Positions 67-62,628 of a stretch of DNA of 64,000 nucleotides are shown piece after piece. Position numbers and translations under genes: made by a program. The first letter of the stretch is position 1, and each line of letters begins with the position of its first letter. Where the stretch lies: NCBI GenBank assembly GCA_963844965.1, contig CAWJQC010000007.1:160001-224000 (forward strand). Reading direction: 5' to 3'. The notes beneath the pieces were generated by a model that saw only the letters and a program-made list of their open reading frames with translations, did not search any database and was not told the DNA's origin. Source of the stretch: an uncultured bacterium. GTDB lineage: Bacteria; Patescibacteriota; Minisyncoccia; UBA6257; 2-01-FULL-56-20.

Positions 67-89
67 GTCTGACTGCTCTGAACAGCGCG

Positions 90-190
90 TTTTGCGACTG
101 CTCTGCTGTTGCAAAACGCGCGTGGGGTTTTGCGACAAATTACCGATTTGTTGCAATAACCCCCGTTTTGCGACACTTTGTGATATAATG
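90..190 (+). promoter_or_regulatory. promoter region of the recombinase gene: three direct TTTTGCGAC repeats (90-98, 128-136, 166-174) plus related GTTGCAAAAC/TTGTTGCAA sites, then an extended -10 TGTGATATAAT (179-189)
   Basis: repeats and TGnTATAAT read directly; the -10 overlaps the first ATG, so translation probably starts at the second ATG (197) as a leaderless mRNA. Confidence 0.5.
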
Positions 191-2800: not shown

Positions 2801-2807
2801 TTGTTCG

Positions 2808-2878
2808 TGGACCTGGGGGGAATCGAACCCCCACCTCTTCCATGCCATGGAAGCGTTCTGCCACTATACTACAGGCCC
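2808..2878 (-). tRNA. tRNA-Ala (anticodon GGC)
   Basis: cloverleaf folded by hand: acceptor GGGCCTG/CAGGTCC with G3:U70, anticodon loop AUGGCAU, T-arm GGGGG-TTCGATT-CCCCC, discriminator A, no encoded CCA. Confidence 0.8.
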
Positions 2879-3835: not shown

Positions 3836-4327
3836 ATGCAGGAATATCTGGGCGAAGCCGTAATTTTGAACCGCGAGCCTGTGGGCGACCTTGACCTGCG
3901 CCTTTCTATTTTTACGAAGCGGTTCGGTAAGTTTGTGGCGAAGGCCAAGAGCGCGCGCAAGATAACTTCCAAGCTTGCCGGACACTTGCAGCCCGGAAAT
4001 CTTGTTGACGCAAGGATTGTTGAAAAGAATGGTCTGCAGATAGTTGATGTGCTGAAAAAACTGCGGCTGAGTATTGCTCCTGCCGATCTGCATCGCCTGA
4101 ATTTGATTCTCGCGGAAGCCGAGCCGGATTTGCGACTCTGGCGCGAGCTTGTAAGTGGCGAATTCGGTTGGCCGGAGGTGTTGAAAATTTTGGGGTGGGA
4201 TCCCAGCGTGGCGCGATGCGGCGCTTGCAATAGCGCGGAGAAGCTCGCTTTCAGCATTCCCGGGCAGGATTTTTTTTGCGGGAATTGCGTTTCAAAATTG
4301 GACCAGAATGAGGTAATATATATTTAA
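3836..4327 (+). CDS. recO: DNA repair protein RecO (short form)
   Basis: N-terminal OB-fold region typical of RecO and a C-terminal CxxC...CxxC zinc finger. Confidence 0.65.
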   Translation: MQEYLGEAVILNREPVGDLDLRLSIFTKRFGKFVAKAKSARKITSKLAGHLQPGNLVDARIVEKNGLQIVDVLKKLRLSIAPADLHRLNLILAEAEPDLRLWRELVSGEFGWPEVLKILGWDPSVARCGACNSAEKLAFSIPGQDFFCGNCVSKLDQNEVIYI

Positions 4328-4329
4328 TG

Positions 4330-4420
4330 TCTGTTGATTAACGAATTAACGGATTGCGTATTAACGGATTCGGTTTTTGATTCGTTAATTCGTTGATGCG
4401 TTAATAAATAATTTTTAACT
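4330..4420. repeat. palindromic TTAACG(G/A)ATT repeat array ending CGTTAATAAATAAT; same family at 20906-21012 and 46880-46960
   Basis: direct and inverted copies of ATTAACGGATT/AATCCGTTAAT read directly; shared terminal 14-mer. Confidence 0.6.
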
Positions 4421-4423
4421 CGT

Positions 4424-6252
4424 ATGTCACCGAGCAACAAGTACAACGAAAGTTATATTTCGCCTTGGGAGGGTGATAAAGACGCCATGGTGGGCAAGAG
4501 CGGAAGGTCTAAATCGGCGAAGCACCGCAACCGCGGCCCCATATTGATCGCTGTGGCGGCGCTTATCGCGGTAATAGCCGTCTTATTTTATTTCGCGTTT
4601 CTGCGGAAACCGGCGGGGCCGGATGTGGGCATGGAATTTCTGAATCCTGGAGCGATACTGGCCGGCGACGGGTTCACTCTCACAGTTTCGATTTCCAATT
4701 ATTCGGACATTGTTCTCCGGGACGCGAGGGTTTCGCTTGTTCTGCCCGACGGCGTTTCGTTTACGGAATCGCAGGCCGACCAGCGCGTTGATGAGAGAAC
4801 CATAGGCGATTTCGGGCCCGGGAGCGTCAATCAACAGTCCTTTAATTTGATAGTTACGAACGGCAGCAATGTATTGAAACATATCCAGGCTAAATTTGAC
4901 TACGCGACGGGCGGGAGCACAAGCGCCGAATTTGAGAGTGTCGGAGAATATGATCTCTCGGTTGGGCAACCGGCAATCGGTTTGAATCTGAGCGCGCCGC
5001 AGAGCATTTTCAACAGCCAGGATTTCACAGTCAAGGTTTCGTACATAAACAACACCAGCCACGATTTCAAAAATTTGCATTTAAACGTTGATTATCCGCC
5101 GATATTCGGATTCAAATCCAGCACGATGCAGCCCGAGTCCGGGAGCAATAATTCTTGGGATTTAGGGACGCTCGCTTCCGGCTCCAGCGGCGTTATATCC
5201 ATAACCGGCAGCGTTGTTGGGCCGGAAAAGTCGTTTTTCAACTTCGGCGCTTCTTTAACATCCGACCTTATGGGTAATACTTACACGATCAATAGCCAGA
5301 CGGCGTCCGTGGCCATTTCCGCGGCGCCGCTCGCGCTTCAAGTCACGCGCCGGAGCACGGCGGATAATGCACTGCATGCCGGTGACCCCGTTACTTACAA
5401 TCTTAATTACGTGAATAATTCCGATGTTACCATGCAGGACGTTACGATAAGCGCCAAACTTACCGGTGAAATGTTTGATTTCACGACGGTTGACACCAAA
5501 GCCTACTTTAATTCGCTGACCGATACGATTAATTGGTTCGCGGCGAACACTCCGGAGCTCCAGAGCATCGCTCCGGGACAGGGAGGGTCGGTTGCTTTCG
5601 CGATCAAAGTCAAAGATTCTTTTCCGATCCGGCTGATGAGCGACAAAAATTACACCTTGCGGCTGGACGCGCAGATTCATCCCCGACGGTTCCGGCAAAT
5701 ACGGCCGCGAACAAGACGGTTTCCATTGCCAGCATTGAAGACAAAGTCGCGGGAAAAATTGATCTGGCGGCGGAAGCGTATTGGCGCGACGCGCAGAGCG
5801 GGATTTTAAATCAAGGGCCTTACCCGCCGAGAGTGGATCAGCCGACGCAGTACACCATACACTGGCGGCTCACAAATTATTCCACAGACGTGGCAAATAT
5901 CACGGTTTCGGCGTATCTGCAGTCAGGCAGCCGGTTCACTGGAGTTGTGAGTTCCAATATCGCGAGTAGCACGCCGACGTACAATCCGGATTCCGGCCTG
6001 GTTACGTGGCAGGTCGGTTCTTTGCCGGCAACGAAAGGGATCACTGGAGCTCCGGCCGAAGCGGTTTTCCAGATAGAAAACACGCCGTCACTCACGCAGG
6101 TCAACCAAAACGTGTCGCTTCTGGGGGAAACGAAAGTTGAGTGGACGGATTCTTTCGTTGGAGCGGTGTACGACGCTACTGCTCCGCCGCTGGACACCTC
6201 CCTTCCGTATGATAAAACGATAACGGATACAGGCAGGACGGTGGAGAATTAG
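4424..6252 (+). CDS. large secreted or surface protein with DUF11-type conserved repeat domains; frame broken near 5683 (C4 run), joining ORFs 4424-5809 and 5533-6252
   Basis: N-terminal TM/signal anchor, repeated beta-rich modules rich in N/S/T; one extra C would join the two ORFs into a ~609-aa protein. Confidence 0.55.
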
Positions 6253-6310
6253 AAATTAGGAAGCAGAAAATAGAAAACAGGGATATGCCCAAAACAGATA
6301 AAGGCGATTA

Positions 6311-7675
6311 ATGGACAAGATTGTGTCTTTGGCGAAGCGCAGAGGGTTTATTTTCCCCGGCTCGGAAATTTATGGAGGACTTGCCAACTCCTGGGATTAT
6401 GGGCCGCTTGGTGTGGAGCTCAAGAATAATATCAAAAATTTCTGGTGGGACAGATTTGTGCACAGGCGCGACGACATCGTGGGATTGGACGCGGCTTTAA
6501 TAATGAACCCCAAGGTGTGGGAAGCGAGCGGTCATCTCAAAGAATTTATTGACCCGTTGATTGAATGCAAAAAGTGCCACGAACGCTTCCGCGCCGACGA
6601 GCTTTTTAAAAAAGGCAGCTGGAAGAAAGAGCAGGAATTCTTGGGAACGCTTTCGGAAGCCGACAAAGAGAAAAGGGTCCGCGACCTGTTTGACAAATGC
6701 CCGAGTTGCGGTGCGGAAGACCAGTTTACGATACCGCGCAATTTCAACATGATGTTTAAGACGTTCATCGGCCCCGCCTACGGCGAGAAATCCGTCGCTT
6801 ACTTCAGGCCGGAAACGGCGCAGGCGATGTTCGTTGATTTCAAGAGTATTTTGAACACAACGCGCAAGACCGTTCCTTTCGGCATCGCCCAGGTTGGAAG
6901 GGCGTTTAGGAACGAAATAACGCCGGGCAATTTCGTTTTCCGGACAAGAGAATTTGAGCAAATGGAAATAGAATATTTCATCCGCGAGAAGGACTGGGAA
7001 AAATATTTTGACTATTGGCGCAAGGAGATGCTGGATTGGGTCGGGGATCTGGGTATCAAACCGGCGCGCATCCACGAGAGCGAAATCAAAGAGGAAGACC
7101 GCGCGCATTATTCGTCAAAAACCGTGGATTTTGAATACAATTTCCCGTTTGGCAGAAAAGAACTTTACGGCTTGGCGTATAGAACGGATTTTGACCTCAA
7201 GAATCATGAAAAGTTTTCCGGCGCTAACCTGAAGTACCGCGATCCGAAAACCGGAGAGGAGTTCTGGCCGCACGTCATTGAGCCGAGCATGGGTGTTGAG
7301 CGCCTTTTGCTTGCCGTAATGCTTGAAGCGTATGCCGAGGATGGCGACAGAGTTATTTTGAAACTTCCGGCAAAATTGGCGCCGCATAAGGCGGCGGTGT
7401 TTCCGCTCTTGGCCAACAAGCCAGAACTTATAAAGCTCGCAAAGAAAATATATGACGATTTGCGCCAACAGTTCGTGGTCGCTTGGGACGACCGCGGCAA
7501 CATCGGCAAGCGCTACTACGCGCAGGATGAAATCGGCACGCCCTGCTGCATCACCGTTGATTTTGATTCGCTGGAGGAGGACGACGTTACCGTGCGTGAT
7601 AGAGATACGGCGAAACAGGAGAGGATTAAAATAGCCGAACTCGAAGAATATTTGAAAGAGCACATAGGACCATGA
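6311..7675 (+). CDS. glyQS: glycine--tRNA ligase (class II, alpha2 type)
   Basis: strong similarity to GlyRS (FPGSEIYGGLANSWDYGPLGVELK...; class II motifs; anticodon-binding C-terminus). Confidence 0.9.
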   Translation: MDKIVSLAKRRGFIFPGSEIYGGLANSWDYGPLGVELKNNIKNFWWDRFVHRRDDIVGLDAALIMNPKVWEASGHLKEFIDPLIECKKCHERFRADELFKKGSWKKEQEFLGTLSEADKEKRVRDLFDKCPSCGAEDQFTIPRNFNMMFKTFIGPAYGEKSVAYFRPETAQAMFVDFKSILNTTRKTVPFGIAQVGRAFRNEITPGNFVFRTREFEQMEIEYFIREKDWEKYFDYWRKEMLDWVGDLGIKPARIHESEIKEEDRAHYSSKTVDFEYNFPFGRKELYGLAYRTDFDLKNHEKFSGANLKYRDPKTGEEFWPHVIEPSMGVERLLLAVMLEAYAEDGDRVILKLPAKLAPHKAAVFPLLANKPELIKLAKKIYDDLRQQFVVAWDDRGNIGKRYYAQDEIGTPCCITVDFDSLEEDDVTVRDRDTAKQERIKIAELEEYLKEHIGP

Positions 7676-10125: not shown

Positions 10126-10425
10126 GTGACTAACAAGTATAATTCGGTTATTTATACTGGTATCACGAACGACATCGTGCGGCGAATGGGTGAGCATGTT
10201 CGCAAAGCGGTTCCGGGTTTTACATCAAGATATAGTGTATGTAAATTGGTGTGGTTCGAAGAATTCAAGACACCGGAGGAGGCCATCACCGCAGAGAAAC
10301 GAATCAAAGGGTGGGTGCTAAAAAAGAAAGTGGCGTTGATCAAAGAGAAAAATCCTGAATTCATAGATTTATTGCATGGAGATCCTTCGGTTTTGCCTCA
10401 GGATGACAATGGGGAGAGGCGTTGA
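10126..10425 (+). CDS. GIY-YIG nuclease family protein (COG2827/UPF0213-like small protein), GTG start
   Basis: GIY-YIG motif VIYTGITNDIVRRMGEH; ~99 aa, typical size for this family. Confidence 0.7.
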   Translation: MTNKYNSVIYTGITNDIVRRMGEHVRKAVPGFTSRYSVCKLVWFEEFKTPEEAITAEKRIKGWVLKKKVALIKEKNPEFIDLLHGDPSVLPQDDNGERR

Positions 10426-10457
10426 TTTTTATACTCAAAAGATATAGATTTAAGTCA

Positions 10458-11466
10458 ATGTTCACCAAGAAAATCGGTATTGACTTAGGCACGACCAACA
10501 CCGTGGTTTTCGTGCCTGGCAAGGGATTTATCATCAACGAGCCGACTATTGTCGCCTTGATTAAGCCCGACAATACGGTGCTTGCCGTGGGTGTGGAGGC
10601 GAAGGAAATGATCGGGCGGACGCCGGAAGAAATCGTCGCCTACAGGCCGCTTAAGGATGGCGTGATTGCCGACTATTACATCACGAAGGCGATGCTTACG
10701 TATTTCATCTCCAAGGCCTCTGGCTGGTTCAATGTTTTCAAACCGGACGTTGTCATCTCGGTTCCGGCTGGAATTACGCAGACCGAGCGGCGCGCCGTTA
10801 CGAACGCCGCGAAAGAAGCCGGAGCGGGAAACGCTTTTATCGTGCGCGAGCCGGTTCTCGCCGCTTTGGGCGCTGGAATTCCAATTAACGCCCGTTCGGG
10901 GAACATGATCATCAACATCGGCGGCGGCACTTCCGAAGTCGGCGGTCATCGCTTTGGGCAGCATAGTTTCCTGGACGAGCTTGCGCATTGCCGGCAACAG
11001 ATTTGACCAGGCAGTCAGCGATTATGTGAAAAGGAAATACGCCTTGGCCATCGGCGAGCAGACGGCCGAGAACGTGAAAATTGAGATCGGCTCGGCATGG
11101 CGACAAAAGAAAAGATGGAATATGAACTCCGCGGCCGCGATTTGATAACCGGGCTGCCGAAAGATATATGTCATCAATTCCAACGAAATAGCGGACGCAC
11201 TGAATCCGTTCCTCGTGGATATCGCCGGCTCAATTCAAAGCGTTTTTAACGTGACTCCGCCGGAGCTTGTCGCGGACATCATGGAGAAGGGGATTATTCT
11301 TTCCGGCGGCAGCGTCCAGCTTCACAATATGCCGGAATTTTTTGAAAGATTTTTGGGCGTGCAGGCCTATGTCGCCGAGGATCCGTTATTCTGCGTCGCC
11401 AAAGGCACGGGGCTGATTCTGGACCACTTGGATATGTATAAGAGGACGCTTTTGAACAAGAGATAA
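10458..11466 (+). pseudogene. mreB: rod shape-determining protein MreB, interrupted by three frameshifts (~10935 extra G; ~11110 missing A in an A-run; ~11180 extra T in ATATAT)
   Basis: three ORF pieces (10422-11006, 10954-11145, 11215-11466) each align with consecutive MreB segments (GIDLGTTNT..., IGGGTSEV..., EYELRGRDLITGLPK..., C-terminal GGSVQL...); may be an assembly artefact. Confidence 0.6.
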
Positions 11467-18506: not shown

Positions 18507-18586
18507 GGGCCCCGTAGCGCAGATTGGTCAGCGCGCCCGACTGTTCAAGCGGGAGGTCGCTGGTTCGAATCCAGCCGGGCCCACCA
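18507..18586 (+). tRNA. tRNA with an aberrant 8-nt anticodon loop (CUGUUCAA); best guess Asn (GUU); CCA encoded
   Basis: acceptor GGGCCCC/CGGGCCC with a 7-66 mismatch, D-stem GCGC/GCGC, T-arm GCTGG-TTCGAAT-CCAGC; the anticodon stem is only CCCG/CGGG, so identity is uncertain (possible indel). Confidence 0.45.
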
Positions 18587-18614
18587 AATCTTTAGCTCTT
18601 TGGTTTTTGTTTGT

Positions 18615-18703
18615 GGCGGGATGGCGGAGTGCTAATCGCGGCAGGCCGTAACCCTGCTCTCCCATCGCGGAGTTCGAAGGTTGAAATCCCTCTCTCGCCA
18701 CCA
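18615..18703 (+). tRNA. type II (long variable arm) tRNA, Tyr-like (anticodon GUA) with an unusual C33; CCA encoded
   Basis: acceptor GGCGGGA/TCTCGCC, anticodon stem GCAGG/CCTGC with loop CCGUAAC, variable stem-loop CTCC-CATCGC-GGAG, T-arm GAAGG-TTGAAAT-CCCTC. Confidence 0.5.
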
Positions 18704-18717
18704 AATTTTTTGGATTC

Positions 18718-18788
18718 GGCGCGGTCGTCAAGTGGCAAGACTGAGGGCTTGCAAGCCCTTATCGGGGGTTCGATTCCCTCCCGCGCCT
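18718..18788 (+). tRNA. tRNA-Cys (anticodon GCA)
   Basis: acceptor GGCGCGG/CCGCGCC, anticodon stem AGGGC/GCCCT with loop UUGCAAG, T-arm GGGGG-TTCGATT-CCCTC, discriminator U. Confidence 0.75.
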
Positions 18789-20479: not shown

Positions 20480-20585
20480 AATTACCTTGTGCTCCGCACA
20501 AGAATTTTCAGGTAATAATTTTCAATTTTCAAATGGTTTGGAAATTGTAAATTGCAAAATTGGAAATTCTCGCGCGCAGCGCGAG
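20480..20585 (+). other. 23S IVS-b (~105 nt) at the helix-45 position; interior is related to IVS-d
   Basis: an insertion lies between GTACCGAAGCTACG and GTAGTGGTAGGAGAGCATTC; interior aattttcaaatggtttggaaattg is similar to 21275-21330. Confidence 0.6.
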
Positions 20586-20885: not shown

Positions 20886-21033
20886 CGTGTCTCACTGCGT
20901 TCGACACTATAGTTAAACAATTTTTCAGTTAACGAGTTGCGAGTTAACGAGTTGAAAACAAAAAACCCGTTAACACGTTAACTCTTTAACTCGTTAATAA
21001 TTAATTATTGGGTGGCGAGCGGAGCGAGGCACG
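20886..21033 (+). other. 23S IVS-c (148 nt) with terminal stem CGTGTCTCACTGCGTTCG / CGAGCGGAGCGAGGCACG; interior made of TTAACG-family repeats
   Basis: 18-bp terminal pairing with 2 mismatches; interior matches intergenic repeats at 4330-4420 and 46880-46960. Confidence 0.6.
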
Positions 21034-21238: not shown

Positions 21239-21352
21239 CGTGCCTCACTGCGTTCGGCGCGGAATTTAAAATTTTACAATTTTTAATTTTCAAACTGTTT
21301 GCAAAATTGAAAATTATATATTGAAAATTCCGCACGAGCATAGCGAGGTGCG
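21239..21352 (+). other. 23S IVS-d (114 nt) with terminal stem CGTGCCTCACTGCGTTCG / CGAGCATAGCGAGGTGCG
   Basis: left terminus identical to IVS-c and IVS-g at 17/18 positions. Confidence 0.6.
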
Positions 21353-22490: not shown

Positions 22491-22510
22491 ACCCCAAGAT
22501 TAGGTGTAGT

Positions 22511-22648
22511 CGTGCCTCACTATCGTTCGGCACGGTATCGATGCAAATATACTAATCGTACTAATGATGCGAATTTGATTCCATTGGTATCATTAGCATT
22601 CACTTGCATATTGGTATCGATACTCGTGATGAGCGGCAGCGAGGCACG
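22511..22648 (+). other. 23S IVS-g (138 nt) near the 3' end (helix-98 region) with terminal stem CGTGCCTCACTATCGTTCG / GAGCGGCAGCGAGGCACG
   Basis: same terminal stem family as IVS-c and IVS-d; interior is palindromic. Confidence 0.6.
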
Positions 22649-22962
22649 ACAAGGTTTCGTTGAAGACTACAACGCATATAGGCTCTAGGTGTAAGATCCG
22701 TAAGGATTTCAGCCAAGGAGTACTAATAACCTGTTTTGCCAACCATCCCAATGCTGACTTGTGTGCTGTTTTGGAGAACCGCGGTTCGATTCGCTCCAGC
22801 GGCGAATCGCCCGCTGCTTCTCGCTCCGACGGCTCGCTTCAGGCGAGACCAAGCCCGTCGGAGCTCCGAAAGCTTCTCCAAAACAGCACACTGCGTCCGT
22901 TCAGAAAGTTTAGGTGTTTTCGCGAAGCGAAAACAGCAATTTAAAGATTAAAACGACTCTTT

Positions 22963-26651: not shown

Positions 26652-26734
26652 GGCGCAGGTGGCAGAGCGGTCAATTGCACCAGACTGTAAATCTGGCGCC
26701 TTCGGGCTACGCAGGTTCGAATCCTGCCCTGCGC
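26652..26734 (+). tRNA. tRNA-Tyr (anticodon GUA), type II
   Basis: acceptor GCGCAGG/CCTGCGC, anticodon arm CCAGA-CUGUAAA-TCTGG (identical loop to E. coli tRNA-Tyr), long variable arm, T-arm GCAGG-TTCGAAT-CCTGC, discriminator A. Confidence 0.8.
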
Positions 26735-26740
26735 ACAAAT

Positions 26741-26767
26741 AAAAAAGCCCAAATGGGCTTTTTTATT
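26741..26767 (+). terminator. rho-independent terminator AAAAAGCCCAAATGGGCTTTTTT
   Basis: hairpin plus T-run immediately after tRNA-Tyr. Confidence 0.6.
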
Positions 26768-26829
26768 TGTGCGCCTTGCGACATTCAGTTCTGTCCCGCG
26801 CGTGAAGTGCGCCGTGCTATAATTAAGCT

Positions 26830-28874: not shown

Positions 28875-28945
28875 TTATATAATGCGAAAATTGCGAATAC
28901 TGTATGCGAATAATGCGAAAAATTTTCGCGGTATTCGCATAAATA
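28875..28945 (+). promoter_or_regulatory. array of four direct ATGCGAA(T) heptamers followed by inverted copies (TTTTCGCG, ATTCGCAT) overlapping a TATATAAT box; candidate operator
   Basis: repeats read directly. Confidence 0.4.
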
Positions 28946-28955
28946 ATTCGTAGAT

Positions 28956-31842: not shown

Positions 31843-31851
31843 ACATCAATC

Positions 31852-31940
31852 TTACGAAAATACGAAAATATACGAAATTACGAAAACTAAATTTGAGGTG
31901 ACCACATTTCGTACGTTCGTAAAATTTCGTACTTTCGTAA
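31852..31940 (+). promoter_or_regulatory. array of four direct TACGAAA heptamers followed by three inverted TTTCGTA copies immediately upstream of ppsA; candidate operator/iteron-like sites
   Basis: repeats read directly. Confidence 0.45.
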
Positions 31941-31958
31941 GAGCGGGCAATAGCGAGC

Positions 31959-34563: not shown

Positions 34564-35289
34564 ATGGAAAATGAGGATGATTTGATAACTATAGGCCAGG
34601 CCGCCGAACTGCTTGGGGTTTCTATCATGACACTTCGCCGTTGGGACGAAAGCGGGCGTTTTCTATCCATAAGGAAACGGCCCGGCGGCGACCGCTACTA
34701 CAGAAAAAAAGACGTGGAACTATTTTTAAGCGATCTGTTTCGCTTGGCGTACGACTGGGTTCTCTCGAATGCCGAATTTCCGGAAACCCTTTATTGCCAG
34801 ACGAGCGCGACCTTTCAAGCGCGCCTCACGAGAATGCAGGATGACATGATCCGCAGCGGGACCGTGAAAGAGCTATTTTCGCTTCTCGTTTCGATTGCGG
34901 GAGAGATAGGAAATAATTCATACGACCACAATCTCGGATCGTGGCCCGACACGCCCGGAATATTTTTCGGATATGACCTCAATAAAAAGCATATCGTGCT
35001 TGCCGACCGCGGACTCGGCGTTCTTGAAACATTAAAGAGAGTAAGGCCGCAACTGGACAACTTTGAAGATGCGTTGCGAGTTGCTTTTACGGAAGTGATT
35101 TCGGGGCGTGCTCCCGAAGGAAGAGGAAATGGATTAAAATACGTAAAGGAAGTAATCTCGGAAAACCCGATTAGCCTGCTCTTCCAAAGCGGAGATGCGG
35201 AACTTACGATGAATGGCAAAAGTCAAAACTTCACGGTAGCTAAAAGCAAAAATAGTTTGCGCGGCTGCTTCGCATTCATATCGTATTAA
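34564..35289 (+). CDS. fusion of a MerR-family HTH with a GHKL (RsbW/SpoIIAB-like anti-sigma kinase) ATPase domain
   Basis: N-terminal ITIGQAAELLGVSIMTLRRWDESG HTH; C-terminal N-box EIGNNSYDH, G1 DRGLG, G2 GRGNGL. Confidence 0.6.
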   Translation: MENEDDLITIGQAAELLGVSIMTLRRWDESGRFLSIRKRPGGDRYYRKKDVELFLSDLFRLAYDWVLSNAEFPETLYCQTSATFQARLTRMQDDMIRSGTVKELFSLLVSIAGEIGNNSYDHNLGSWPDTPGIFFGYDLNKKHIVLADRGLGVLETLKRVRPQLDNFEDALRVAFTEVISGRAPEGRGNGLKYVKEVISENPISLLFQSGDAELTMNGKSQNFTVAKSKNSLRGCFAFISY

Positions 35290-46349: not shown

Positions 46350-46577
46350 ATGGCTATTCGCAGAAAGAGAATAGAAACAGTGCTTCAAAGAGTCCGTCCG
46401 TATATCCAAATGCACGGTGGAGACGTGCTTTTGGTTGAAGCGAAAAGAGGTACTGTGAAACTGAAAGTATACGGCGCCTGCGTCGGTTGCCCGCTTGCGG
46501 ATTTGACCTATAATAAAATGTTAGGGGAACTTTTGAAGGAAGAGATACCTGAAATAAAAAAAGTCGAAATAATTTAG
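46350..46577 (+). CDS. NifU C-terminal-domain (Nfu-type) Fe-S cluster carrier protein
   Basis: GACVGCP CxxC motif in a ~75-aa Nfu-fold protein. Confidence 0.7.
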   Translation: MAIRRKRIETVLQRVRPYIQMHGGDVLLVEAKRGTVKLKVYGACVGCPLADLTYNKMLGELLKEEIPEIKKVEII

Positions 46578-46616
46578 AAAGAAAATAGAAATTAGAAAAT
46601 AGAAAATAGAATAAAA

Positions 46617-46877
46617 ATGGCCAATACCAAAGAATACCCTCGGAGCAGGCCCGGTTCCAAAATAGGGAAGATAGTCATTGACCGCGACCTTTGTATCGGC
46701 GCGGCTTCCTGTATCGCCGTTTCCGCCGAGACCTATGAATTGGACGGCGAGAATAAAGCCGTGGTGAAGGGCGCTGACGCCGTTGATGACGATGTGGTCA
46801 TCATGTCAGCCGAATCCTGTCCTGTGAAAGCGATTTTGCTTTACGACAAGGACGGAAAGCAGATCTTTCCCAAATAA
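46617..46877 (+). CDS. ferredoxin (single [4Fe-4S]/[3Fe-4S] cluster type)
   Basis: IDRDLCIGAASC...ESCP cysteine pattern. Confidence 0.65.
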   Translation: MANTKEYPRSRPGSKIGKIVIDRDLCIGAASCIAVSAETYELDGENKAVVKGADAVDDDVVIMSAESCPVKAILLYDKDGKQIFPK

Positions 46878-46879
46878 AC

Positions 46880-46960
46880 GAATTATCCAATTAACGGATT
46901 AACGCATTAACGAATTTAATCCGTTAATTCGCAATTCGTTAATAAATAATCGAGCAATCT
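46880..46960. repeat. TTAACG-family palindromic repeat (CCAATTAACGGATTAACGCATTAACGAATTTAATCCGTTAATTCGCAATTCGTTAATAAATAAT)
   Basis: same family and terminal 14-mer as 4330-4420. Confidence 0.6.
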
Positions 46961-46962
46961 TT

Positions 46963-48192
46963 GTGAATAGTTATAAGTATTTAATAATCGGCGGGGGAAT
47001 TGCGGGCACGACGGCGGCTGAAACAATACGTGCGAAGGACGCGGACGGTTCCATCGCCATCATAACGGACGAGCCGTATCCTTTGTACTCGCGCGTGATG
47101 CTTTCCAAGCCATCTTTTCTTTTGGACAGGACGGGCAAGACGAATATTTGGCTGAAAACTACGGATTGGTACGAAAAGAACCGCATTGAATTAATGAGCG
47201 GGAAGTCGGCGACCGCCCTGGATGCCAAGGCAAAAATTCTTACCGTCGGCGGCGAAGCCATCGGCTACGAAAAATTGCTTCTGGCCATCGGCTCTCGCGC
47301 AAGGAAGTGGGCCGTTCCGGGCGCGGACAAGAAGGGAGTTTGTTACCTACGCACGCTTGACGAAGCGAAAGAGATCGCGGCGCAAATGAGAACGGCAAAG
47401 CACGCCGTCGTCATCGGTTCAAGTTGTGTCGCTTTTGAGGCGATAGACAATCTGCGAGCGGCTGGCAGTGAGGTTACTGAAGTTATGCTTGAAAAATATT
47501 TCTGGGAGCCGATGCTTGACGAGGAAGGCGGGCGCATCGTGGAAAAAGCGTTTACCAATGCCGGCGTGAAAATTGTCCGCCAATCGGAAGTGGGAGAGGT
47601 TCTCGGCGGCGCAGAAGTTGAAGGCATTCTCACGAAAAGCGGCGAGAGAATTGACTGCGACATGATTTTGTGCGGCATCGGCGTCATCTATCCGCTGGAT
47701 TTTGTGAAAACGGCGGGCGTGAGGACGAATCGCGGCATTGTTGTAAACGAATTCATGGAAACAAGCGCGTCGGATGTCTGGGCAGCCGGAGACGTGGCAG
47801 AATGCAATGATATCGTGCTCAAAGAGCAATGTATTGCCGGCAATTGGATGAGCGCGCGCGAGCAAGGAAGAGTTGCCGCTTTAAATATGACTGGCGCCAA
47901 GCAACCGTTTAAATTGGTTTCGTTCTACACGAGCCACGGTTTCGGGCTCAATGTCGCTTTCGGCGGCGACATCCGTTTGTTGCCCGAGCGGACGGCTGTA
48001 AGCCGCGGCTCCGCCGAGAGCGGTTCGCATACCCGTCTTATTCTCCGAGGCGGAAAAATCGTCGGTGTCTCAATGGTAAACAGAATTTTTGAATTGGGAA
48101 CCATCGTGAAACTTATTGAGAGCCAAGCCGATGTCTCGGCGAAACAAAAAGAACTTGCCGACCCGGAGTTTGATTTGAAACAGCTCGTTTAG
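46963..48192 (+). CDS. FAD-dependent pyridine nucleotide-disulfide oxidoreductase (putative ferredoxin/rubredoxin--NAD(P)+ reductase)
   Basis: GGGIAG FAD-binding motif and a second NAD-binding GxGxxG; gene lies next to the ferredoxin. Confidence 0.75.
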   Translation: MNSYKYLIIGGGIAGTTAAETIRAKDADGSIAIITDEPYPLYSRVMLSKPSFLLDRTGKTNIWLKTTDWYEKNRIELMSGKSATALDAKAKILTVGGEAIGYEKLLLAIGSRARKWAVPGADKKGVCYLRTLDEAKEIAAQMRTAKHAVVIGSSCVAFEAIDNLRAAGSEVTEVMLEKYFWEPMLDEEGGRIVEKAFTNAGVKIVRQSEVGEVLGGAEVEGILTKSGERIDCDMILCGIGVIYPLDFVKTAGVRTNRGIVVNEFMETSASDVWAAGDVAECNDIVLKEQCIAGNWMSAREQGRVAALNMTGAKQPFKLVSFYTSHGFGLNVAFGGDIRLLPERTAVSRGSAESGSHTRLILRGGKIVGVSMVNRIFELGTIVKLIESQADVSAKQKELADPEFDLKQLV

Positions 48193-56649: not shown

Positions 56650-57205
56650 AGCCCCGGCCTTTAGGCCGAGGATAAGGCGACCCCGTAGCCCCGAGCGAAG
56701 CGAGGGGCGGAGGGCTTATTTGCCTGTTCCCACTGGTTTCTGCCGGTGCGATAATGAAGATAATGCCCTCTGGATTCTGGCCAAGCAACCACAGCTATAC
56801 GCGATGTTTGTACCACGTTGTTTTCTGCCCAAAGTACCGCCGCTCGATACTGCGAGGGGACATGGTCGGGCGACTCAAGACATTGTTCTTTCAAGCCGCC
56901 AAGATGAATAAATGGTTCATCCATGAAGCGCAGATAATGCCCGACCATGTCCATCTATTGCTTCAAATTCCTGCTACCCTGACGGTTGCCAAAGCGGTGT
57001 TTTATCTCAAAGGCGGTACGTCCAGGGCTGTCAGAAAAGAATTTCCCGAGCTGGAAGAATTCCTCTGGGGAGACAGCTTGTGGCAGGATGGTTACTTTGC
57101 CGAAACCGTTGGCCGTCAAAACGAAAAAGCGATGAGAGAATATATCAGAAACCAGTGGGAACAGGAGCCGAACACAAGCCGCGGGCTTTAGCCCGCGGTG
57201 ATTGA
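56650..57205 (+). mobile_element. IS200/IS605-family element (tnpA only) with subterminal hairpins CGGCCTTTAGGCCG (left) and GCCGCGGGCTTTAGCCCGCGG (right)
   Basis: Y1 HUH transposase gene flanked by imperfect palindromes with a shared TTTAG loop. Confidence 0.65.
56754..57191 (+). CDS. tnpA: IS200/IS605 family transposase TnpA (HUH Y1 transposase)
   Basis: YHVVFCPKYRR and HVHLLL (HUH) motifs, ~145 aa. Confidence 0.85.
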   Translation: MKIMPSGFWPSNHSYTRCLYHVVFCPKYRRSILRGDMVGRLKTLFFQAAKMNKWFIHEAQIMPDHVHLLLQIPATLTVAKAVFYLKGGTSRAVRKEFPELEEFLWGDSLWQDGYFAETVGRQNEKAMREYIRNQWEQEPNTSRGL

Positions 57206-59869: not shown

Positions 59870-60155
59870 TTCGCGAGGAAATATTGTTAACATCGACTCT
59901 CGTACCAACCTCCTCAAGACAGAAACTAGGACTCAAGCAGAAAATCTTTTGGAAATGTTGGCAGACAAAACTAAGTGGACATTTACGTCCGCTCATTGGC
60001 CGTGGGGTCCATATCAAACCACTCGATTTAGAAAAGGCAGCGTAAAACCTGGGAAGGCTCGTTACAACGCGCTTCTTGCTCAAAATCCCATATCTCTCGC
60101 GATTATCAGCCGAGAGAGTATTGAATATACGATAGACGAAAACGGAATGTTCTAG
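59841..60155 (+). CDS. hypothetical protein (~104 aa), GTG start with a GGAGGAGG RBS; its stop shares TCTAGA with the convergent gene
   Basis: ORF plus a strong RBS. Confidence 0.4.
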   Translation: MAVIKSRISDSRGNIVNIDSRTNLLKTETRTQAENLLEMLADKTKWTFTSAHWPWGPYQTTRFRKGSVKPGKARYNALLAQNPISLAIISRESIEYTIDENGMF

Positions 60156-61609
60156 AGCAATCTGTTTTGTGACGCCAAAACGCATTCTTCCTTCATGCGT
60201 TTTTCTGCAATCGCACAGTACTCGGGCGCAATATCAATTCCGATATACTTGTGCCCCAAATTCTTTGCCGCAACGGTAGTAGTGCCACTTCCAACAAAAG
60301 GATCTAAGACGACCCCATTTTTGGGACAGAAGCATTGTATGAAATCGTACGGCAATTGATTTGGAAATGTTGCCGGATGTTGATGTTTTAGTCGGCTGCC
60401 GTCACCGGCCGTGAGATATTCCCAAATCGTCCCCCGGCACTTCATGGGATTTATCTTGATGGGTCGGGTGTTTATCCGTGTGCCATTTGTCAGGCGAGTG
60501 CCTCCGCCTGTCAATGTTTTCCCGCCCCACTTAGACGGTATTTTGAGTGGTTCTTTATTGAAATGCTGTGGCCTTTCTCCTTTTAGGAAAATTGGCATAT
60601 ATTCGTGGTCGACACGGAAGCGTTTATTCCACCAAGCGCCCTCCGCGCCGTACTTTCTATAGATGGTGGTCTCAAAAAGTTTAAATCCTACATTATCACA
60701 CCAATCTATTATTGTTTTGAAAGAGGTCAGCGATTTCGCGAAATTTTTTGTTTGATCTTGGATGACCATTACGGCTACTCCGCCGTCTTTCAGCGCTCTG
60801 TATATTTCTCTTCCTGTCTCGTGGAGATTAAATTTCGGCCTTCCTTTGTAGTCGCGTACGGCATCGTACGGAGGCGAAGTGACTACAATATCCACCGAAT
60901 TGGGGGGAAACTCTTTCATTATATCTACCGCATCGCCGCAAATGATTTTATTTAGCGGCAATTCTTCATATTTTTTAACTTCTTTGTGCTCGGGAAGTTG
61001 TATTGTTGACGCTCCTTCTTCCCGGATAACATCAAGCACTATTCCTTGGATTGAAACATCTCGTCCGTTTCGGAAGATAAGCGGCTCCATATTTTTATTG
61101 GCCGGTTGCAAACGAATATGTCCTCGTTCTTTATAAAATTTCTTAAGTGTTGCTTCGTGATTATCAATAAGCGCCACCACTTTTTGTCCGTTCTCGGCGA
61201 TTTTCTGCTGTTTTACCAAAACGATATCTCCATCGTTGATATTCTCATCAACCATGCTATTACCGACAACCTTTAGTGCGTAAATCTGGCCAGAACCGGG
61301 TAATCTACTTTGAGGAACAGCGATGGTCTCTCTGTCTTCTATGGCCTCAATCGGTTGGCCTGCGGCTATGGTTCCCAGCAGAGAAATACTTATCATCTTT
61401 TCTGATTTTGAAATTTCTATCCCTCGCGGCTGACTCGTCGCCTTTGTCAATAATCCTTTCTCTTTCAACGATTCAATATGCTGGTGAATAGTTGAGACCG
61501 AACTTAACCGGAAATGCTTTTTAATTTCCTCAAGCGATGGAGCGAACCCCCTTTTCTTGGTAAAACTTTTTATAAAATCCAAAATTTGTTTTTGGCGTTT
61601 GGTTAGCAT
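60152..61609 (-). CDS. fusion of a full-length LexA-like repressor (HTH plus S24 peptidase) with a beta-class N4/N6 DNA methyltransferase
   Basis: N-terminal 205 aa align to LexA (cleavage site AAG, catalytic GNSM Ser and K in ATLKKF); the C-terminal ~280 aa carry motif IV TSPPY before motif I DPFVGSGTT; one continuous 485-codon ORF; TATAAT 6 nt upstream of the ATG. Confidence 0.7.
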   Translation of the reverse strand: MLTKRQKQILDFIKSFTKKRGFAPSLEEIKKHFRLSSVSTIHQHIESLKEKGLLTKATSQPRGIEISKSEKMISISLLGTIAAGQPIEAIEDRETIAVPQSRLPGSGQIYALKVVGNSMVDENINDGDIVLVKQQKIAENGQKVVALIDNHEATLKKFYKERGHIRLQPANKNMEPLIFRNGRDVSIQGIVLDVIREEGASTIQLPEHKEVKKYEELPLNKIICGDAVDIMKEFPPNSVDIVVTSPPYDAVRDYKGRPKFNLHETGREIYRALKDGGVAVMVIQDQTKNFAKSLTSFKTIIDWCDNVGFKLFETTIYRKYGAEGAWWNKRFRVDHEYMPIFLKGERPQHFNKEPLKIPSKWGGKTLTGGGTRLTNGTRINTRPIKINPMKCRGTIWEYLTAGDGSRLKHQHPATFPNQLPYDFIQCFCPKNGVVLDPFVGSGTTTVAAKNLGHKYIGIDIAPEYCAIAEKRMKEECVLASQNRLL

Positions 61610-62331: not shown

Positions 62332-62628
62332 ATGCCCAAATTTAGTAGGCTCAAAAAATTTACGAAAACGAACATTGAGAAAATACCTAAAAATAAATCA
62401 ATAGTATATAAGCTTACAAATACTGCTGGCAAAAACTTATATACGGGTATTGCTGGACGTGGCAGAACCGTTAAGCGCCTGCTCGAACACAAAAAACTTA
62501 AGAAGGACGAGATAAAGGGGGCGTCTCGTTTTAAGATCGCTCAAGTATCTACCAAAAAGCGAGCGGCTCAGATTGAAAAGCAAATTATAAAAAGGGAAAA
62601 ACCAGAGTTTAACATCCAGCATAAGTAA
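62332..62628 (+). CDS. stand-alone GIY-YIG nuclease domain protein (homing-endonuclease-like catalytic domain, 98 aa)
   Basis: SIVYKLTNTAGKNLYTGIAGRGRTVKRLLEH matches the GIY...YIG...R...E pattern. Confidence 0.6.
   Translation: MPKFSRLKKFTKTNIEKIPKNKSIVYKLTNTAGKNLYTGIAGRGRTVKRLLEHKKLKKDEIKGASRFKIAQVSTKKRAAQIEKQIIKREKPEFNIQHK

Follow-up and report, generated by a model that had tools for sequence, protein, structure and literature searches.

The window (the whole stretch of 64,000 nucleotides analysed here) holds three arrays of short repeats built on TTAACG, two between protein-coding genes and one in the 23S rRNA gene. The first array (site 1, 4337..4412, no strand assigned) fills the spacer from a RecO-like gene with a RecO_N domain (3836..4327, plus strand), whose stop codon lies 9 nt before it, to the gene of a DUF11-domain (surface-type) protein (4424..5809, plus strand, ATG at 4424). 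The second (site 2, 46878..46950, no strand assigned) fills the spacer from a 4Fe-4S ferredoxin gene (46617..46877, plus strand), at whose stop codon it begins, to a ferredoxin-reductase-like flavoprotein gene (46963..48192, plus strand, GTG start at 46963). Neither downstream gene is preceded by a Shine-Dalgarno motif, which by rough ORF calls is found in few genes of the window, and exact-protein look-ups of the DUF11 protein and the ferredoxin gave no match. The third array (site 3, 20927..21005, plus strand) is found in the 23S rRNA, as the distal stem of an insert. A sequence-only reading of this DNA had placed the arrays at 4330-4420, 46880-46960 and 20906-21012. All three are present with slightly tighter bounds (4337-4412, 46890-46950 and 20927-21005); as that reading had it, two are intergenic and just upstream of start codons, and the third lies within an IVS of the 23S gene. 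The two intergenic arrays end 11-12 nt before the start codon, and the third makes up the outer part of a 132-nt insert.

Each of the three clusters consists of direct TTAACG copies followed by inverted copies. At site 1, a TTGCG-unit arm (4337-4370; ATTAACGA ATTAACGG ATTGCGT ATTAACGG ATT) is separated by a centre (4371-4379) from the opposite arm (4380-4404; ATTCGTTA ATTCGTTG ATGCGTTAA), which is followed by the end box TAAATAAT (4405-4412). At site 2, the array occupies 46890-46950 and the palindrome reaches 46878; its first arm (46890-46916; ATTAACGG ATTAACGC ATTAACGA ATT) faces an opposite arm (46918-46942; AATCCGTTAA TTCGCAA TTCGTTAA) that carries TTCGCAA, which puts the TTGCG unit on the minus strand, and the end box TAAATAAT follows at 46943-46950. 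Site 3 represents a subfamily with AG after each CG, in which an arm (20927-20953; AGTTAACGAG TTGCGAG TTAACGAG TT), an opposite arm (20966-20997; CCCGTTAACA CGTTAAC TCTTTAAC TCGTTAA) and the end TAATTAAT (20998-21005) can be recognized.

TTAACG shows no overall enrichment in the window (35 observed versus 44.6 expected), and 15 of these 35 hexamers are located in the three clusters of about 70 nt. The composite sequence TTAACGNNTTGCGNNTTAACGNNTT (25 nt) is found exactly at 4346(+), 20929(+) and 46918(-), with 0.02 occurrences expected in the window. Moreover, CGTTAATAAWTAAT has three exact matches in the window, once per array and always at the right end, and five matches when up to two mismatches are allowed (1.1 expected), a number reached in 0 of 100 shuffles. 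A blind scan with no motif preset, in which any 6-mer with at least two direct and then at least two inverted copies in 110 nt was counted, identified five loci in the window and 0-1 in each of 20 shuffled controls. The folds of all arrays are also better than those of shuffled sequence (z -4.4 to -7.2), in line with the fold check proposed by the sequence-only reading, and the shared TTAACGNNTTGCGNNTTAACGNNTT and CGTTAATAAWTAAT at all three loci bear out its description of direct-then-inverted copies of one family with conserved termini. In run ERR10755942, assembled independently, sites 1 and 2 are identical to the base (L118 for site 1, L119 for site 2), and an assembly artefact is therefore rejected for both. 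Chance or low complexity is likewise rejected by the window shuffles and by recurrence in other genomes.

The 132-nt insert (20895..21026, plus strand) lies in domain III of the 23S rRNA, at about position 1534 of the Rfam LSU model, where the consensus has 10 nt. It folds as a single long hairpin (-43.6 kcal/mol, z = -5.9) and, as in other IVSs, this extra stem-loop takes the place of a conserved 23S helix tip. At its base is a stem, CTCACTGCGTTCG (20891-20903) / CGAGCGGAGCGAGG (about 21016-21029), that recurs in a second insert (21243..21351, plus strand; CTCACTGCGTTCG / CGAGCATAGCGAGG) and, in a related form (CCTCACTATCGTTCG / GAGCGGCAGCGAGG), in a third (22509..22650, plus strand). The distal hairpins are periodic and differ in unit, that of the second insert (21259-21333) being built on AATTTT(N). 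Periodic arms are also seen in other 23S inserts of the window, such as that at about model position 1218 (20497..20575, plus strand), whose arms are AATTTTC / GAAATTG tandem units. Of seven 23S inserts, six fold better on the rRNA strand.

Periodic hairpins of other units are also present between genes of the window, and the similar heptamer arrays that the sequence-only reading had listed proved to be real. The ATGCGAA/TTGCGAA array (28879..28947, no strand assigned) ends in CGCATAAATAAT, which is the end box of the TTAACG family, and is probably a diverged relative of that family. The TACGAAA array (31850..31942, no strand assigned), with a unit spacing of 8-10-8 that is mirrored in the opposite arm, lies just upstream of a PPDK-type gene (ATG 31959). 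At 85..176 on the plus strand, two TTTTGCGAC / GTTGCAAAA hairpins and a fifth copy, with G.U pairs on the plus strand only, precede a XerC/D-like recombinase gene, which probably starts at ATG 197 and has TATAAT ahead of this start, at 184-189.

To ask how widely the composite occurs, it was searched in 596 Gb of genomes, and 76 loci were found versus about 4 expected by chance, as calculated arithmetically for the 19 fixed bases of the pattern. Patescibacteria account for about 47 of the 76 loci, and a single MAG has up to 10 strict-pattern copies. The full architecture is the same in 27 copies, which yield one consensus with an asymmetric TTGCG unit and A/T end boxes: an AT-rich quasi-palindrome of about 60-80 bp, with two arms of three phased units each, a TTAACG core and an 8-bp period. 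Arm 1 is TTAACGaA-TTGCGaA-TTAACGaA and arm 2 a threefold TTAACG(N)A, with ATTATTTA/TAAATAAT-type ends and unit spacings of 8-7-8 and 8-8-8. The centre is variable, with an inter-arm distance of 0 to 57 nt, and in MAG122 the long centres form perfect hairpins of their own, which differ in sequence. The TTGCG-bearing arm is used in both orientations relative to transcription about equally, and the RNA hairpin is almost the same whichever way the element lies. These results show that the three loci in the window are copies of one dispersed family common to many Patescibacteria lineages; the recurrence of the architecture and of the ATTATTTA/TAAATAAT-type ends in 27 copies from many Patescibacteria genomes is at odds with the idea that they are AT-rich low-complexity sequence without conserved termini. 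None of the 76 loci has 23S sequence beside the array, and the rRNA copy at site 3 is therefore an exception. The ORFs near the 23S gene of the window have no homologs among the fetched loci, and the S2-anchored metagenome loci contain no rRNA.

The TTAACG family belongs to a larger class of hairpins, those with arms of 7-8-nt tandem repeats. Other units make up 52 of the 86 arrays in the fetched loci, and L077, the nearest relative, bears four arrays of other units in 18 kb. Unbalanced tandem duplications are seen in one arm, for example (AAATGTTA)x4 in L012. Strain-level length variants were not seen, the two assemblies of one sample being identical. The arrays have no match in Rfam 15 at the gathering threshold, and weak matches were only to microRNA precursors (17-20 bits versus cut-offs of 70-130). 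Phage carriage was considered and rejected: the sole match in viral contigs is a direct-repeat stretch lacking an inverted arm.

The arrays are distributed unevenly among spacer types. Among 61 arrays, 56 are in co-directional, 2 in convergent and 3 in divergent spacers, against a baseline of 290 co-directional, 68 convergent and 55 divergent spacers of at least 50 nt (70% co-directional). If insertion were simply tolerated, convergent spacers should commonly hold arrays, yet arrays are rare there (2 of 68). In the L5-S14-S8-L6-L18 operon of a Saccharibacteria MAG, three consecutive junctions each contain a different array. The gene-proximal end is usually T(A/N)AATAAT and lies 0-12 nt before the start codon. 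The genes downstream of 20 copies are unrelated housekeeping genes, including those for PPDK, several aminoacyl-tRNA synthetases, GroEL, RecR, RuvC, UppS and L18, and a regulon is not supported by this set; tRNA charging accounts for about 6 of the 20, which is suggestive only. In genome annotation the arrays are markers of true gene boundaries, and they can lead ORF and start-codon callers astray.

Comparisons of orthologous junctions reveal arrays gained and lost and units exchanged. In five relatives the ferredoxin|reductase junction measures 5-7 nt; it holds a TTAACG array in the window and in L120, and a TAGCGA-unit array in L123. At the RecO|DUF11 junction the array is built on TTAACG in the window and on TTCATGG in L077, and L085 has none. 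The PPDK gene is preceded by the TACGAAA array in the window and by a TTAACG array in L013. Such presence/absence polymorphism, as is typical of MITEs, is consistent with insertion. A check for target-site duplication came out negative: the filled ferredoxin|reductase junctions (window and L120) have about 85 nt in place of the 6-nt spacer and show no direct duplication when compared with the empty ones (L121, L124, L127 and L128). It is also evident that the site 2 array is conserved, with 57 of 61 positions identical to its L120 ortholog (93%), against 77 of 149 fourfold sites (52%) in the adjacent gene; the substitutions between the two arrays are uncompensated.

Outside the search pattern, the arms of the copies are no more alike within a genome (83.5% identity) than between lineages (82.9%, P = 0.32). 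A recently spreading element would show an excess within genomes, and its absence here counts against recent spread. Folding is no better on the sense strand than on the other strand in the intergenic arrays (18 versus 19; 100 versus 105 G.U pairs), suggesting that selection for an RNA hairpin at the junctions is weak or absent. In addition, complementarity between the arms at the position next to CG (N1) is 36%, the same as the 36% expected by chance.

We tentatively favor, with somewhat less than an even chance of its being right, a REP/MITE-like self-folding element that is tolerated where its hairpin loops out of RNA, some copies being under constraint. The TTAACG element would then behave like a REP, a MITE or a 'repetitive hairpin element', a self-folding DNA that has been copied to new places. 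It would persist in the stop-to-start spacers of co-directional genes and at rRNA helix tips, where it could loop out of the transcript harmlessly; because folding holds the stop and the start close together, even insertion into a tight junction would be tolerated. At an rRNA tip the element would turn into the distal stem of an IVS, which RNase III presumably excises. The arms may grow, shrink and switch unit by replication slippage with a matching change opposite ('compensatory slippage'). Some copies would later be retained by selection, probably because the element has become part of the expression of a downstream gene that has no Shine-Dalgarno motif; the gene-proximal TAAATAAT, 9-12 nt before the start, resembles a -10 box or an A/U-rich leader.

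The small mobile REP/MITE-like element that the sequence-only reading had suggested is thus upheld in part: the family is dispersed and its presence/absence pattern fits insertion, but no target-site duplication was seen between filled and empty junctions, and no transposase or other gene recurs beside the copies. In an all-against-all ORF clustering of 41 CPR loci, no family was found in more than three loci. The sole Y1 transposase of the window (Y1_Tnp ORF, 56754-57191) is an IS200-type TnpA (130.8 bits with the IS200 model, cut-off 55; 38.6 with the RAYT model, cut-off 80), the flanks of which are GC-rich hairpins unrelated to the arrays, and no RAYT gene flanked by TTAACG arrays is present within the 64-kb window. 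A RAYT/IS200 link was rejected on these grounds.

A shared binding-site architecture, the other suggestion of the sequence-only reading, has evidence of its own, and in the form of an operator or promoter array on double-stranded DNA it is the foremost alternative, possible and still rather unlikely. In this case the six 8-bp-phased boxes, three direct and three inverted, would bind a conserved oligomerising DNA-binding protein or RNA polymerase; they abut the -10-like TAAATAAT before starts without Shine-Dalgarno motifs, and the palindromy would reflect symmetric binding, not folding. Ribbon-helix-helix repressors (omega heptads, ParG 8-bp boxes, MetJ metboxes) do bind contiguous 7-8-bp repeats in direct and inverted order. 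The non-complementary N1, the uncompensated changes and the lack of strand bias are better explained by a DNA-binding array, and the conservation of hexamers and phase over phylum-level lineages with N1 left free, the ortholog identity well above that of silent sites, the lack of excess similarity within genomes, and the T(A/N)AATAAT end so near the start all point in the same direction. AATAAT matches the -10 consensus in 5 of 6 positions, and, by rough ORF calls, a -10-like hexamer is located 6-11 nt upstream in about 9 of 36 ATG genes of the window, few of whose genes have a Shine-Dalgarno motif. Against this, no sigma-70-type promoter (-35/-10 with a 16-18 nt spacer) ending at TAAATAAT passed the scan of 4250-4450 and 46850-47000, and the -35 region is a poor match at both sites. 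Moreover, the promoter-rich divergent spacers are depleted of arrays (3 of 55, compared with 56 of 290 co-directional ones), the copy in the 23S rRNA insert has no obvious operator role, and an inter-arm distance of 0-57 nt with self-complementary long centres is unexpected for an operator. The downstream genes are unrelated housekeeping genes, no regulator gene proved to be linked to the arrays in the clustering of the 41 CPR loci, and dozens of unit types in the same layout would require many regulators in regulator-poor genomes. A MerR/excisionase-like protein of the window (34564-35289) was considered as a binder and found no support, with one weak homolog across all loci.

It is less likely that the arrays are dedicated RNA processing signals, in which a double-strand-specific RNase of the RNase III/Mini-III type would cut the transcribed hairpin. 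The 23S insert would be excised, and polycistronic mRNAs would be cut into short-leader mRNAs that need no Shine-Dalgarno motif, leaving a protective 3' hairpin on the upstream part. RNase III is known to process T7 early mRNA and Neisseria Correia elements at intercistronic hairpins. Such processing would give a single account of the 23S and junction copies, and it agrees with the good folds of all arrays, the near identity of the RNA hairpins from either orientation, the location of arrays within conserved operons, and downstream start codons that stand about 10 nt from the foot of the hairpin and have no Shine-Dalgarno motif. The junction arrays, however, have no sense-strand advantage in folding or G.U pairs, whereas the 23S inserts do; every eighth position is mismatched between the arms at the chance rate, and the ortholog changes are uncompensated. 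What is conserved is sequence rather than pairing, unlike what an RNase that reads structure would demand.

Growth in place by slippage and template switching at a small inverted repeat, with no function and no copying between sites, is improbable as a general explanation. Many unit types, often one per locus, the unbalanced duplications in one arm, different units at the same orthologous junction, and what may be a nascent direct TAAC(T) triplet at the L085 junction, which lacks an array, are all expected from such a process. The same composite TTAACG-TTGCG-TTAACG with its end boxes and 8-7-8 spacing is nevertheless found at three unrelated loci and in 27 copies elsewhere, the ortholog is highly conserved, and one kind of spacer is strongly preferred. 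For the TTAACG family this process is largely refuted, and for single-copy arrays with private units it is possible.

Intrinsic terminators of the upstream genes are very unlikely. The hairpins do stand directly after stop codons, but no GC-rich stem with a T-run passed the scan of 4250-4450 and 46850-47000, convergent spacers rarely hold arrays, arrays occur inside a ribosomal-protein operon and without sense-strand bias, and the ordinary terminators of the window are elsewhere (e.g., 26731-26774); the scans thus gave the arrays neither a canonical promoter nor a canonical terminator identity. The stem-loop arrays of the TIGR-Tas system (tandem interspaced guide RNA), which with palindromic flanks exist in Patescibacteria (bioRxiv 10.64898/2026.09.09.750476), can practically be dismissed, since their defining features are absent here: the loci have a single hairpin each and no box C/D-like motifs or spacer pairs, and a Pfam scan found a Nop-domain (Tas) protein in 0 of about 85 ORFs of the window.

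Among known systems, REP/BIME sequences are likewise short imperfect palindromes, dispersed, multicopy and intergenic, often within operons and rare in divergent (promoter) regions, and the three non-coding copies in 64 kb make up such a set of multiple palindromes. Unlike the REP/BIME-RAYT systems of Enterobacteria and Pseudomonas, the arms here are phased tandem repeats, the consensus is common to phylum-level lineages where REPs are species-specific, copies are not more alike within a genome, convergent spacers are poor in arrays too, and the window has no RAYT, its Y1 transposase being an IS200 TnpA with unrelated hairpins. MITEs, including the Neisseria Correia elements (NEMIS), are also small, non-coding and gene-adjacent, with inverted ends and presence/absence polymorphism, and the TTAACG arms, including their ATTATTTA/TAAATAAT ends, are inverted relative to each other. 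Correia elements have outward promoters, are transcribed together with neighbouring genes and are cleaved by RNase III, a combination that would fit the TTAACG element. They differ in that the TTAACG element shows no target-site duplication at the ferredoxin|reductase junction and no autonomous partner was found among the 41 CPR loci, its end sequence is unrelated, and its inverted ends comprise three sub-repeats each. The operators of ribbon-helix-helix regulators, similarly built of contiguous 7-8-bp direct and inverted repeats near promoters, are matched by the 8-7-8/8-8-8 boxes of the 27 copies. Those operators, however, control the operon of the regulator itself or plasmid operons, and the regulator gene is close by, whereas the TTAACG arrays have no linked regulator, unrelated targets, one rRNA copy and variable arm spacing.

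Double-hairpin elements of some fungal mitochondria also occur in variable regions of rRNA genes. Mitochondrial families of hairpin-forming repeats invade intergenic spacers and are potentially mobile without coding capacity or a known transposase (PMC2800124). The TTAACG family likewise consists of hairpin repeats in intergenic spacers; the mitochondrial elements are organellar, usually GC-rich and without phased tandem-repeat arms, whereas the present family has bacterial hosts and is conserved over the whole radiation. For the rRNA copy, a survey of CPR rRNA genes lists many short (<200 bp) inserts that lack an ORF, are distinct from introns and are taken, presumably, to be IVSs of the RNase III type (PMC11270868); it does not describe repeat structure. 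Like those inserts, the ones described here are extra stem-loops at 23S helix tips; they differ in that three of them share one basal stem under distal periodic hairpins of differing units, and one of these hairpins is from a family that elsewhere lies between protein genes. In eukaryotic rRNA expansion segments, as outlined in PMC1888808 (citing Hancock & Dover 1990), stems grow by compensatory slippage on both strands, each strand consisting of short mutually complementary tandem motifs. Both strands of the window arrays consist of such motifs; the concept as outlined there concerns eukaryotic expansion segments and growth in place, whereas the present arrays are in bacteria, occur also between protein genes, and include at least one dispersed family.

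On a more speculative level, and with no great likelihood, TTAACG could be the recognition site of an undescribed Patescibacteria-wide factor (a junction or insulator protein, a hairpin-specific nuclease or a recombinase), and, more generally, hairpins with tandem-repeat arms could self-propagate, partition operons and seed CPR rRNA inserts. If so, they would be the bacterial analogue of the growth of expansion segments, with dispersal as an additional step. A large part of bacterial diversity belongs to the CPR/Patescibacteria, whose expression signals are scarcely known and whose rRNA genes have many unexplained short inserts. The present finding joins the two subjects, as the same family or kind of hairpin is found at gene junctions, including those of a ribosomal-protein operon, and at 23S helix tips, and it provides a testable route for the origin of short rRNA inserts. 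The conserved 60-80-bp sequence can also be used as a bait in the few genetically tractable Saccharibacteria.

The window holds three TTAACG arrays, each made of direct copies followed by inverted ones: site 1 (4337-4412) at the RecO|DUF11 junction, site 2 (46878-46950) at the ferredoxin|reductase junction and site 3 (20927-21005) in the 23S rRNA gene. Over the full window TTAACG is not enriched (35 copies, 44.6 expected); 15 of the 35 copies lie in the three clusters. Each array contains the end motif CGTTAATAAWTAAT once, with no further occurrence in the window, and the 25-nt composite TTAACGNNTTGCGNNTTAACGNNTT, on the minus strand at site 2, is found with zero mismatches in all three arrays where 0.02 occurrences are expected in the window. 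An unguided scan of the window for any 6-mer with at least two direct and then at least two inverted copies within 110 nt returned five loci, compared with 0-1 in shuffled sequences. All arrays fold far more strongly than shuffled sequence, and sites 1 and 2 are identical in an independent assembly of run ERR10755942. The arrays and their common end, as described by the sequence-only reading, are therefore real.

When 27 copies from the window and other genomes are oriented by the TTGCG-bearing arm, a single consensus emerges. Its first arm, A-TTAACG-a-A-TTGCG-a-A-TTAACG-a-ATT, follows an A/T-rich stretch (often ATTATTTA); the centre is variable (0-57 nt), and the second arm reads AAT-n-CGTTAAT-n-CGTTAAT-n-CGTTAA-TAAATAAT. 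The element is thus a quasi-palindrome rather than a perfect palindrome, with unit lengths of 8-7-8 in one arm and 8-8-8 in the other. N1, the base adjoining each CG, is complementary between arms in 36% of unit pairs, which equals the shuffled expectation, whereas N2, the base after it, is complementary in 95%. The longer centres in one MAG are perfect small hairpins whose sequence differs from copy to copy. Site 3 is a member of a subfamily in which AG follows each CG and which is also present in several other genomes. Two AG-type arrays, on a Wirthbacteria contig (L046, ~4475-4570) and a Saccharibacteria contig (L072, ~1717-1830), are also similar in their left flank (ACATCC..GT..AGTATACCGCAAAA.AC), a hint that the array may adjoin an RNA gene or be part of a larger conserved unit.

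The composite, with 19 fixed bases, was searched on two strands of a 596 Gb collection of species-representative genomes, where by our own arithmetic ~4 chance matches are predicted. It matched 76 loci, ~47 of them from Patescibacteria (Saccharibacteria, Moranbacteria/Moraniibacteriota, Parcubacteria, Microgenomates, Woese-, Wirth-, Portnoy- and Buchananbacteria, and unnamed 'Patescibacteria group' MAGs), with up to 10 matches per MAG. Four matches in Levilactobacillus represent a single orthologous coding stretch, and the only match in viral contigs is irrelevant. Site 2 aligns with copies from other lineages at 85-89% identity over 62-72 nt. These results firmly establish TTAACG as a repeat family that is both conserved and dispersed. 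A few MAGs with the labels Bacteroidota and other phyla contain a G-rich version, in which (GGGTTAACGGGTTGCGGG)n precedes its inverse; a 15-nt tandem form, (TTAACGGGTTGCGGG)n plus inverse, is found in MAGs carrying Bacteroidota, Thermoanaerobaculia, Desulfobacterales and Rhodothermales labels (loci L008, L019, L021, L034, L040, L054, L058, L061 (CALEYM01), L017, L018, L033, L045 and L060). Either this type of element also exists outside CPR or the bins contain contaminant sequence.

It is equally solid that the family belongs to a broader class of periodic hairpins. Among 86 direct-then-inverted arrays in ~480 kb around the genome matches, 52 are built of other units, and 266 kb fetched via ribosomal protein S2, and hence unbiased for TTAACG, contain ~10 more, none of TTAACG type. 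The window arrays of ATGCGAA/TTGCGAA units (28879-28947, ending in CGCATAAATAAT) and of TACGAAA units (31850-31942), which had been likened to the TTAACG arrays, belong to this class. In the L5-S14-S8-L6-L18-S5-L15 operon of a Saccharibacteria MAG (L012, 840-2110), S14|S8, S8|L6 and L6|L18 each carry a different periodic hairpin, with units AAAGTTAT, ATGTTAA and TTAACG, the TTAACG element being at L6|L18. Unlike the TTAACG arrays, the TTTTGCGAC hairpins (85-176, plus strand), between a canonical terminator (~41-67) and a recombinase gene, look like an RNA-level structure: GTTTTGCGAC paired with GTTGCAAAAC gives a G.U pair in each on the plus strand only (4 versus 0 on the minus strand; -49.0 versus -39.9 kcal/mol). 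Direct-only arrays of (T)AGAAAAT units, with no inverted arm, lie upstream of the ferredoxin gene (46575-46612, plus strand) and of a class II aminoacyl-tRNA synthetase gene at 6311 (~6245-6290).

The TTAACG copies fill their spacers, leaving 0-25 nt to the flanking stop and start codons. By crude longest-ORF gene calls, the 61 placeable arrays in CPR loci comprise 56 in co-directional, 2 in convergent and 3 in divergent spacers, against 290, 68 and 55 among baseline spacers of at least 50 nt. The genes starting beside the copies are assorted housekeeping genes, and no recurring protein family was found near copies in the CPR loci. The 23S gene is 3839 nt long, versus a model of 2925 positions, with inserts near model positions 312, 1218, 1534, 1763, 1891 and 2237 and an additional insert-like hairpin near its 3' end (22509-22650, model position not assigned). 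Site 3, already placed within a 23S IVS by the sequence-only reading, makes up the distal portion of the 132-nt insert at ~1534. A basal stem, CTCACTGCGTTCG / CGAGCGGAGCGAGG and variants, is common to the inserts at ~1534, ~1763 and 22509-22650, whose distal hairpins differ; those at ~1218 and ~1763 have periodic distal hairpins of AATTTT-type units. None of the 76 genome loci has its array within a 23S gene. A survey of CPR rRNA genes (PMC11270868) catalogues many short inserts that lack ORFs and are of unknown nature, making no mention of repeat structure. The preference of arrays for stop-to-start junctions and rRNA helix tips is solid. Three tRNA genes (18508-18788, plus strand) lie directly upstream of the 23S gene, which no 16S gene adjoins; ARAGORN reports irregular anticodon loops ('gttc', 'gc') in two of them, which may be introns or unusual loops.

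It is also evident that arrays come and go at orthologous junctions. The ferredoxin|reductase junction is 5-7 nt (TAG-N6-ATG) in five relatives with 72-80% protein identity, holds a TTAACG array and a common GTG start in the window and L120, and holds a TAGCGA-unit array in L123. At the RecO|DUF11 junction the window has a TTAACG array, L077 an array of TTCATGG units, and L085 lacks a hairpin; the PPDK-type gene follows a TACGAAA array in the window and a TTAACG array in L013. Of 61 positions, 57 are identical between the arrays of the window and L120 (27 of 27 in one arm), with three substitutions, none compensated; 77 of 149 fourfold-degenerate sites of the adjacent gene are identical. That arrays are gained, lost and exchanged for other units, and that at least one copy is under constraint, is solid. 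Similarity within one genome is not higher than between lineages, conditional on the search pattern having picked well-kept copies.

The nearest parallels among known systems are REP/BIME, MITEs (for example Correia elements), 23S IVSs, the repetitive hairpin elements of mitochondria (PMC2800124) and the compensatory slippage of expansion segments (PMC1888808). In the literature, of which coverage is incomplete, we found no account of the TTAACG family or of periodic-armed CPR hairpins, an absence of evidence only, and no Rfam family matches the arrays. The proposal of a REP/MITE-like mobile element holds in that the family is dispersed and gained and lost at junctions, but the element fails the defining tests of REP-RAYT and classical MITEs and no target-site duplication was seen. 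We tentatively favor a REP/MITE-like self-folding element, which would be tolerated where it can loop out from RNA and would evolve through slippage, some copies perhaps being recruited to expression of the downstream gene.

In a set of 37 arrays flanked by co-directional genes, the better fold is on the sense strand in 18 cases and on the antisense strand in 19, with 100 versus 105 G.U pairs, and the TTGCG-bearing arm takes either orientation relative to transcription. The 23S inserts, our positive control, do show sense bias (in 6 of 7 the rRNA strand gives the better fold). At junctions, therefore, an RNA hairpin is only weakly selected, if at all; together with the free N1 and the uncompensated changes between the window and L120, this lends weight to a DNA-level reading. 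An operator or promoter array nevertheless seems rather unlikely, given that one copy lies in rRNA, centres can be self-complementary, the arms vary in spacing, unit types are numerous and divergent spacers hold few arrays. The start-proximal array end is mostly T(A/N)AATAAT, 0-12 nt upstream of the start codon, with a similar but weaker stop-proximal end, and no sigma-70-type promoter passes a scan of sites 1 and 2. A dedicated RNase signal would suit the copies at junctions and in rRNA, but with so little strand bias at junctions we think it improbable. Tandem duplications confined to one arm in the L012 arrays, including (AAATGTTA)x4, show slippage at work; a purely local slippage by-product is still harder to credit for a family conserved between lineages. 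Terminators or TIGR arrays, whose defining tests the element fails, are scarcely credible, and no intrinsic terminator passes at sites 1 and 2.

Starts adjoining TTAACG copies lack a Shine-Dalgarno motif, which by rough ORF calls precedes ~9 of 70 predicted window genes; a -10-like hexamer lies 6-11 nt upstream in about a quarter of window ATG genes (rough counts), and in many predicted genes a TATAAT-like box lies 5-9 nt ahead of the ATG (for example 60152(-), 62649, 54058(-), 40048 and 15120). This suggests that leaderless or very short-leader mRNAs are widespread. The ORF at 60152-61609 (minus strand, 485 aa, TATAAT 6 nt upstream of ATG) combines a full LexA (DNA-binding and S24 peptidase; TIGR00498, 194.5 bits) with an N6/N4 DNA methyltransferase domain. 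Directly 3' of the PPDK-type gene, 34564-35289 (plus strand) encodes a 241-aa protein whose N-terminus bears a MerR/excisionase-type helix-turn-helix (weak BldC-family match); such proteins can bind direct-repeat arrays, but across all fetched loci this one has only a single weak homolog.

The same genome encodes an IS200/IS605-family Y1 transposase (56754-57191, plus strand; NCBIfam NF033573, 130.8 bits), of a hairpin-dependent single-strand type, flanked at 56654-56705 and 57179-57198 by GC-rich hairpins with CTTTAG loops (CCGGCCTTTAGGCC..., CCGCGGGCTTTAGCCCGCGG) that are unrelated to the TTAACG arrays. The 14-mer CGAGCGAAGCGAGG (56692-56705) beside its left end is 13/14 identical to CGAGCGGAGCGAGG at 21016-21029, the 3' strand of the common basal stem of the 23S inserts; with ~0.02 expected per comparison (an estimate), the likeness could be chance. 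MreB is split (10126-11466 region, plus strand), with residues 1-159 in ORF 10422-11006, the C-terminus in ORF 11215-11466 and a frame change near 10940 by comparison with L032, where the homolog is intact; a GIY-YIG nuclease ORF (10126-10425) lies immediately upstream and a second at 62332-62628. Finally, a 44-nt inverted repeat (2737-2828) represents a partial tRNA copy in inverted orientation, ~1.7 kb from a XerC/D-like recombinase gene; its right arm overlaps tRNA-Ala (2807-2878, minus strand) in the 3' part.
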